10,678 bases of DNA from a virus (lineage: Duplodnaviria > Heunggongvirae > Uroviricota > Caudoviricetes), in IMG/VR virus record IMGVR_UViG_2684623081_000001; one strand, written 5' to 3'. Position numbers and translations under genes: made by a program. Below are positions 9,791-9,961 of this stretch, piece by piece. The first letter of the stretch is position 1. Every line of letters begins with the position of its first letter. The notes below the pieces were generated by a model. It did no database searches. It was not told the origin of the DNA and saw nothing but the letters and a program-made list of their open reading frames with translations.

Positions 9791-9865
9791 TAAGAAACCA
9801 TTATTATCGTGACATTAACCTATAAAAATAGGCGTATCACGAGGCCCTTTCGTCTTCACCTCGAG

Positions 9866-9925
9866 GATAAATATCTAACACCGTGCGTGTTGACTATTTT
9901 ACCTCTGGCGGTGATAATGGTTGCA
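9866..9925 (+). promoter_or_regulatory. Phage lambda PR promoter with operators OR2 (9876-9892) and OR1 (9900-9916); OR3 truncated at the XhoI site
   Basis: -35 TTGACT at 9890-9895, 17-bp spacer, -10 GATAAT at 9913-9918, expected start at A 9925. Operator sequences TAACACCGTGCGTGTTG and TACCTCTGGCGGTGATA recognised. Confidence 0.92.
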
Positions 9926-9938
9926 TGTACTAGAATTC

Positions 9939-9953
9939 ATTAAAGAGGAGAAA
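9939..9953 (+). promoter_or_regulatory. Synthetic strong ribosome-binding site (ATTAAAGAGGAGAAA) between EcoRI and KpnI
   Basis: GAGGAG core at 9945-9950, about 11 nt upstream of the ATG at 9962; the characteristic pZ-vector RBS arrangement. Confidence 0.9.
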
Positions 9954-9961
9954 GGTACCGC

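Follow-up and report, generated by a model that had tools for sequence, protein, structure and literature searches.

The segment at positions 9860-9961 is almost certainly the promoter module of a synthetic expression cassette, derived from strain MRR, that gives constitutive YFP in the Escherichia coli K-12 strains MGY and KLY. We observed directly how the cassette is built, where it is inserted, that cI and cro are absent and that its promoter part is identical to the published one; constitutive expression and the response to CI are taken from published papers. An earlier note on this stretch of DNA (10,678 nt, hereafter the window) had read the segment as a lambda PR promoter that keeps OR1 and OR2 and lacks OR3. 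Exact-string searches and a 68/68 alignment to lambda agree on that content, and the earlier interpretation of the promoter fragment is supported. This is an engineered part that is already known, in its published chromosomal location; it offers no biological novelty and leaves no open question.

The features of the cassette within the window are as follows (coordinates, strand, description):

8842-8882, no strand: left cassette end, a pZ backbone remnant with SpeI (8872); the last native base is 8841 (blastn against MG1655)
8883-8978, minus: lambda t0 (oop) terminator fragment, 96/96 identical to NC_001416 38587-38682
8999-9658, minus: cat, type A-1 chloramphenicol acetyltransferase, the selectable marker (219-aa ORF; RefSeq WP_000412211.1 in MGY)
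9659-9859, no strand: cat 5' region with its putative promoter, AatII (9785) and pBR322-type spacer to XhoI (sequence and site search)
9860-9865, plus: XhoI site CTCGAG, marking the 5' edge of the cloned promoter module; the final G of the site is lambda 37963
9866-9869, plus: GATA, the sole OR3 remnant (lambda 37964-37967, OR2-proximal end of the 17-bp site)
9876-9892, plus: OR2 (TAACACCGTGCGTGTTG), wild type, exact match, -49 to -33 relative to the PR start
9890-9895, plus: PR -35 hexamer TTGACT (promoter scan)
9900-9916, plus: OR1 (TACCTCTGGCGGTGATA), wild type, exact match, -25 to -9, overlapping the -10 hexamer
9913-9918, plus: PR -10 hexamer GATAAT (promoter scan)
9925-9961, plus: predicted 37-nt 5' UTR of the PR-yfp mRNA (coordinate transfer from lambda; +1 A is lambda 38023)
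9962-10678, plus: yfp, a 238-aa ORF; the window ends on its stop codon

The lambda block at 9865-9932 is identical over 68 of 68 positions to NC_001416 37963-38030, both by alignment and by blastn (local E = 2e-34). The reference used was the immunity region of NC_001416, with OR3 (37951-37967), OR2 (37974-37990) and OR1 (37998-38014) as annotated there between cI (left) and cro (right). The XhoI site and the block share one base, the final G of the site, so that 67 or 68 nt of lambda DNA were cloned. The block spans -60/-59 to +8 relative to the PR start, which we take from the established lambda literature to be lambda 38023 (window 9925). Read in order, 9860-9961 consists of CTCGAG (XhoI), GATAAATATC, OR2, ACTATTT, OR1, ATGGTTGCATGTACTA, GAATTC (EcoRI), ATTAAAGAGGAGAAA, GGTACC (KpnI) and GC, followed by the ATG of a 238-codon ORF; the XhoI, EcoRI and KpnI sites form the module borders of the promoter. 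The promoter scan recovered PR as TTGACT, a 17-nt spacer and GATAAT (10/12 matches), and the native spacing of OR1 and OR2 and their overlap with the PR -10 and -35 are kept. No OL operator has an exact-string match in the window. In the leader, lambda sequence ends at +8 (9932) and is followed by the EcoRI site (9933-9938), the pZ ribosome binding site ATTAAAGAGGAGAAA (9939-9953), the KpnI site (9954-9959) and GC. A mini-ORF is present at 9925-9933, where the PR transcript opens with AUG UAC UAG; native lambda has AUG UAC UAA. These three codons are kept in the synthetic leader because the EcoRI junction (ACTA joined to GAATTC) recreates a stop codon.

What remains of OR3 is four bases (GATA), or five (GGATA) if the G shared with XhoI is counted. 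The description of the fragment as beginning four bases into OR3 holds as read from the OR2 side, but from left to right the start lies 12-13 bases into the site. These 12-13 lost bases include the consensus half-site TATCACCGC, in place of which stands vector sequence ending in CGTCTTCACCTCGAG. The intact OR3 (TATCACCGCAAGGGATA) has no exact-string match in the window, and apart from OR1 no window 17-mer comes closer to OR3 than 5 mismatches. A half-site PWM built from 12 natural operator half-sites scored the 17-mer at the OR3 position (9853-9869) at -7.4 bits on the consensus half-site, versus +11.7 for the native site, and no register near 9853-9869 was positive on both half-sites. A hidden OR3 was thus rejected by MAFFT alignment, mismatch scan and PWM alike, and realignment, which might have overturned the earlier reading by restoring an intact OR3, did not recover it. 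On established lambda maps the PRM -10 and the PRM/cI start sit across OR3 from OR2. The PRM -10 (lambda about 37946-37951) falls outside the retained block and, since that block starts at 37963, both it and the PRM/cI start at 37940 are missing. The promoter scan found no minus-strand promoter at the 9840-9900 junction. The native arrangement, with a divergent PRM, a left-hand cI and a right-hand cro, is not present; the right-hand gene here is yfp.

Upstream of the promoter, the lambda fragment at 8883-8978, which we take to be the pZ "t0" module (Lutz and Bujard 1997), carries the oop RNA region, minus its promoter, and the 3' 67 nt of the cII coding sequence. A terminator-like hairpin with a T-run lies within it on the minus strand (8925-8898), and the fragment appears placed to act on that strand and end cat transcription. 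In a sequence scan it could pass for a prophage relic. The cat gene is divergent from PR, and the bases at 9785-9858 match thousands of pBR322/Tn3-related plasmids in PLSDB at 98.6%. Downstream of the promoter, the yfp ORF differs from Aequorea GFP (avGFP reference) by S2R, S65G, V68L, Q69K, S72A, Q80R and T203Y, and it matched GFP-family PDB chains at E about 1e-161. A GFP derivative carrying S65G, V68L, Q69K, S72A and T203Y is, judged by these substitutions, a classic YFP. Beyond the window lie HindIII, XbaI, the rrnB T1 terminator, AvrII, about 40 nt of ColE1-origin sequence and then the tRNA gene argW.

Over positions 1-9000 the window matches two E. coli K-12 chromosomes, MGY (NZ_CP019629.1) and KLY (NZ_CP008801.1), with 100% identity, and the same identity holds for the window as a whole. 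Positions 1-9000 have 2 matching places on the MGY chromosome and 1 on KLY; the second MGY place may come from a short repeat or from a difference in assembly. In other K-12 strains the match stops at base 8841, and among 5426 genomes the full cassette is found solely in the engineered strains MGY and KLY. From window position 8842 a 1999-bp insert stands in place of MG1655 2466491-2467669, that is, the intS (intC) promoter and all of intS except its last 33 nt. It ends 162 nt past the window, at 22840 in the numbering of a 33-kb MGY locus (L001, in which 20841 is window 8841) covering the window and 12 kb on each side. Because the cassette replaces this segment, CPS-53 lacks its integrase intS in MGY and KLY. 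The order of the MGY locus is CPS-53 genes (torI, yfdT through yfdG), cat, the YFP ORF and the tRNA gene argW; in unmodified MG1655, intS occupies the cassette position. The window thus corresponds to the intC::PR-yfp-cat allele of MRR as carried in MGY and KLY, lying in intS of CPS-53 beside argW together with cat and yfp. The source note of the MGY record reads "P1 of YFP-CAM to MG1655". The window itself starts at the torI stop codon and ends at the yfp stop codon.

The Elowitz-laboratory PR part, reportedly used in strain MRR (Elowitz et al. 2002) and in the lambda-cascade strains of Rosenfeld et al. in 2005, and the promoter found here are the same in sequence. The published part contains OR2 and OR1, and its string (ataaatatc, OR2, actattt, OR1, atggttgcatgtactagaattcattaaagaggagaaaggtacc, with flanking bases) is exact at 93 of 93 positions at window 9867-9959 (PMC2132446). 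Operator content, the EcoRI-RBS-KpnI leader and single-copy chromosomal use are likewise shared. Within the promoter there is no difference; here GC stands between KpnI and the ATG. The 2007 constructs were placed at galK with an ampicillin-resistance marker and cI-yfp or cfp, whereas the present cassette is in intS with cat and yfp. CI-YFP supplied in trans represses the identical promoter, with affinities that fall in the known range of native CI (Rosenfeld et al. 2007, PMC2132446), and the identical PR string served as the CI-readout promoter in lambda-cascade and autoregulation strains (PMC2132446). MRR itself, a strain of Elowitz et al. 2002, is MC4100 galK lambdaPR-CFP intC lambdaPR-YFP (PMC2872608). 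[quoted passage not shown] Use of PR-YFP as the prophage-induction reporter of Pearl et al. 2008 (PMC2386839) was considered and rejected; that work used pR'-tR'-GFP, and YFP is unmentioned.

We searched for a source of repressor in the window, in its surroundings and on the whole chromosomes. By tblastn, lambda CI and Cro matched the window at E = 3.6 at best and the 33-kb locus at E = 1.3 at best, and no homologue of either protein is among the 36 genes annotated in the locus. Among ten window ORFs searched with Pfam, none has an HTH_3, Peptidase_S24 or Cro domain. The window was also considered for a CI-like repressor of CPS-53 itself, and this was rejected; the only Pfam matches were the HTH_17 domain of TorI (below cut-off) and the PerC domain of YfdN. 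RefSeq marks a "helix-turn-helix domain-containing protein" pseudogene at 2926-3633 as missing its N-terminus. Its translation had no Pfam match at E <= 0.01 and no similarity to lambda CI or Cro, and it is not a candidate repressor for PR. For the chromosomes, sensitive blastn was run against every complete E. coli genome with a chimeric query that joined the cassette (1838 nt, as anchor) to the cI CDS and the cro CDS. The anchor placed MGY and KLY at the top, with exactly one matching place per chromosome, and lambda lysogens such as J53, NCM3722 and BW2952, serving as positive control, matched the cI/cro part. This single place implies that neither cI, a cI fusion nor cro is carried on the deposited MGY and KLY chromosome records, which are what the test covered. 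It also shows that there is no second PR or GFP-family gene and that the donor galK::PR-cfp allele was not co-transferred. The next accession, NZ_CP019630, is absent from the collection, a weak sign that no plasmid record accompanies the MGY assembly.

The earlier statement that the window contains no cI or cro reading frame is therefore borne out by both tblastn and Pfam. The search of the rest of the genome that it proposed gave the same answer on the MGY and KLY chromosomes, with the lysogens positive. A cI gene just beyond the window, which would have changed the reading, is not there either; the vector sites, rrnB T1, a scrap of vector and argW follow instead. The possibility of a cI or cro outside the window or elsewhere on the genome was rejected on the locus annotation, tblastn and chimeric blastn.

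Three other explanations of the segment were weighed. Its location within the cryptic prophage CPS-53 and its 100% identity to lambda over 68 nt would suit a deletion-truncated remnant of the immunity region of a natural lambdoid prophage. However, XhoI and EcoRI exactly bound the lambda block, a synthetic RBS, KpnI and a jellyfish-derived yfp lie 3' of it, and cat and pBR322-type vector sequence lie 5'. Unmodified MG1655 has intS at this place, and the restriction of the full cassette to MGY and KLY among the 5426 genomes also stands against such an origin. The junction sequences and the vector, cat and yfp context refute a natural remnant, to which we assign a virtually nil probability. It might also be supposed that the junction has accidentally rebuilt a weak OR3-like or PRM-like element, giving a third CI/Cro site or divergent transcription toward cat. 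The GATA remnant and the XhoI bases do form a right half-site, TATCCTCG, that scores 6.1 bits versus 6.4 for the native TATCCCTT, and TTCACC from the vector sits one base off the register. CI and Cro, however, bind as dimers and need both half-sites at 17-bp geometry. The consensus half-site falls at -7.4 bits in register against +11.7 in the native operator, with no register positive on both. A rebuilt PRM is opposed by the lack of a minus-strand promoter at 9840-9900 and by the position of the PRM -10 outside the retained block, and we regard a functional junction element of either kind as extremely improbable.

A working repressor-readout reporter in this strain, with CI or a CI fusion made from the genome or a plasmid, is the remaining explanation. 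The donor MRR was reportedly measured together with a CI-producing Repressilator plasmid in the work of Elowitz et al. in 2002; a text search of the literature for a link between MRR and the repressilator gave no match. The identical promoter was so used in the lambda-cascade and autoregulation strains (PMC2132446). Against such a reporter here, the chimeric query found the cassette as its single place on MGY and KLY while the lysogens matched cI/cro, the strain papers call the YFP constitutive (PMC12758538, PMC4614474), and the intC locus alone was P1-transduced. Active CI readout in this strain is thus very improbable. The earlier note had described the design as that of a repressor-readout reporter. 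This stands for the promoter string, which was put to that use with CI-YFP in trans (PMC2132446), but not for the present cassette, which is a constitutive fluorescence and chloramphenicol marker. Its further statement, that YFP would be constitutive unless CI is supplied, fits both the absence of cI and cro from the chromosomes and the wording of the papers (PMC12758538, PMC4614474, PMC2872608). In practice the cassette is a chromosomal tag for fluorescence and chloramphenicol resistance.

We return to the MRR-derived constitutive cassette as the preferred explanation, against which we found no evidence. In this account a Lutz-Bujard pZ vector received a 67-68-bp piece of the lambda right operator at its XhoI and EcoRI sites, 5' of the pZ RBS and yfp. 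The unit comprising the t0 terminator, cat, PR, yfp and rrnB T1 was recombineered into intS (intC) of CPS-53 in Elowitz's strain MRR, and later moved by P1 transduction into MG1655, giving MGY, and into KL16, giving KLY. Sigma-70 RNA polymerase is expected to use the strong PR -35 and -10 and to produce a yfp mRNA with a 37-nt leader, its start being placed by transfer from lambda. If CI were provided in trans, two dimers would bind OR1 and OR2 cooperatively (established lambda biology; PMC2132446); because these operators overlap the -10 and -35, bound CI would occlude PR. Neither cI nor cro is on the host chromosomes; PR is therefore unrepressed and YFP constitutive. Truncation of OR3 would have removed the divergent PRM (its -10 and start site), including its activation by CI at OR2, together with the preferred, highest-affinity Cro site. 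CI negative autoregulation at OR3 and the alternate OR2-OR3 cooperativity would likewise be lost. Octamer looping between OL and OR would also be lost because no OL operator is present. What is left would be a simple, one-output repressible promoter.

Compared with the native lambda switch (NC_001416 37940-38041), the cassette shares OR2, OR1, the 7-bp spacer, both PR hexamers (-35 and -10) and bases +1 to +8 of the transcript, all in wild-type form, and CI should repress through cooperative OR1-OR2 binding as in the phage. It differs in keeping just 4-5 nt of OR3 and in lacking the PRM -10 and start, the flanking cI and cro and the OL operators. With OR3, PRM, cI, cro and OL all missing, it is therefore a repressible promoter and not a bistable tripartite switch. 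The pZ module layout, with promoters PLtetO-1, PLlacO-1 and others, is said to have been set out by Lutz and Bujard in NAR in 1997. The cassette follows the same order as these vectors: SpeI, t0, SacI, marker, AatII, XhoI, promoter, EcoRI, RBS, KpnI, gene, HindIII, XbaI, T1, AvrII and origin. All the sites and both terminators occur in the order expected from the 1997 map. Unlike the pZ promoters, which are PL derivatives with tet or lac operators, the promoter here is lambda PR with its natural CI operators, and the cassette is chromosomal and has no functional origin. The PR-venus-yfp system of Lagator and Guet (PMC11796464) is similar in that a PR with OR1 and OR2 drives YFP, with OR3 deleted to eliminate PRM. 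There, CI comes from a separate inducible promoter, the construct being a plasmid with cI in cis under PTET (PMC11796464). It is an independent plasmid construct with cI, whereas the present cassette has no cI at all. The exact PR module was not found in PLSDB plasmids, where wide matches were confined to the pBR322-type spacer. Two Vibrio plasmids matched the promoter module query over its full length at 75%; we take these to be a different pZ-style promoter-gfp unit.

The value of the identification lies mainly in annotation. In the RefSeq/PGAP annotation of NZ_CP019629.1, yfp (L001 21962-22678, window 9962-10678) is a "hypothetical protein", WP_038430632.1, and the promoter is unannotated. 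A 72-nt "hypothetical protein" pseudogene is called over the t0/cII-tail fragment (L001 20878-20949). Both labels are annotation artefacts of engineered DNA. With yfp mislabelled and the promoter unannotated, a scan could take the segment for natural phage-derived regulation in a cryptic prophage. Its identity as the MRR cassette explains both lambda sequences of the window (9865-9932 and 8883-8978) and the missing intS. Users of MGY and KLY data can treat YFP as a constitutive, CI-repressible marker, which would go off on lambda lysogenisation or with a cI plasmid.

A CI-operator-like 17-mer, TATCACTGTTGATGATA, occurs in native CPS-53 DNA at 5819-5835, 33 nt upstream of yodE and about 4 kb upstream of the PR module. 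Its half-site PWM score is 15.5, versus 14.7 for OR2 and 15.0 for OL3; a score this high as the maximum has P = 0.018 (5000 shuffles of the 8841 native bases). A distal CI site looping to OR1 and OR2 in CI-supplied strains, or the relic operator of a lost CPS-53 repressor, seems very improbable as a joint proposal. If looping were real, it would partly mimic OL-OR looping and sharpen repression of the reporter. The 17-mer could be a chance occurrence or a relic operator of the cryptic prophage.
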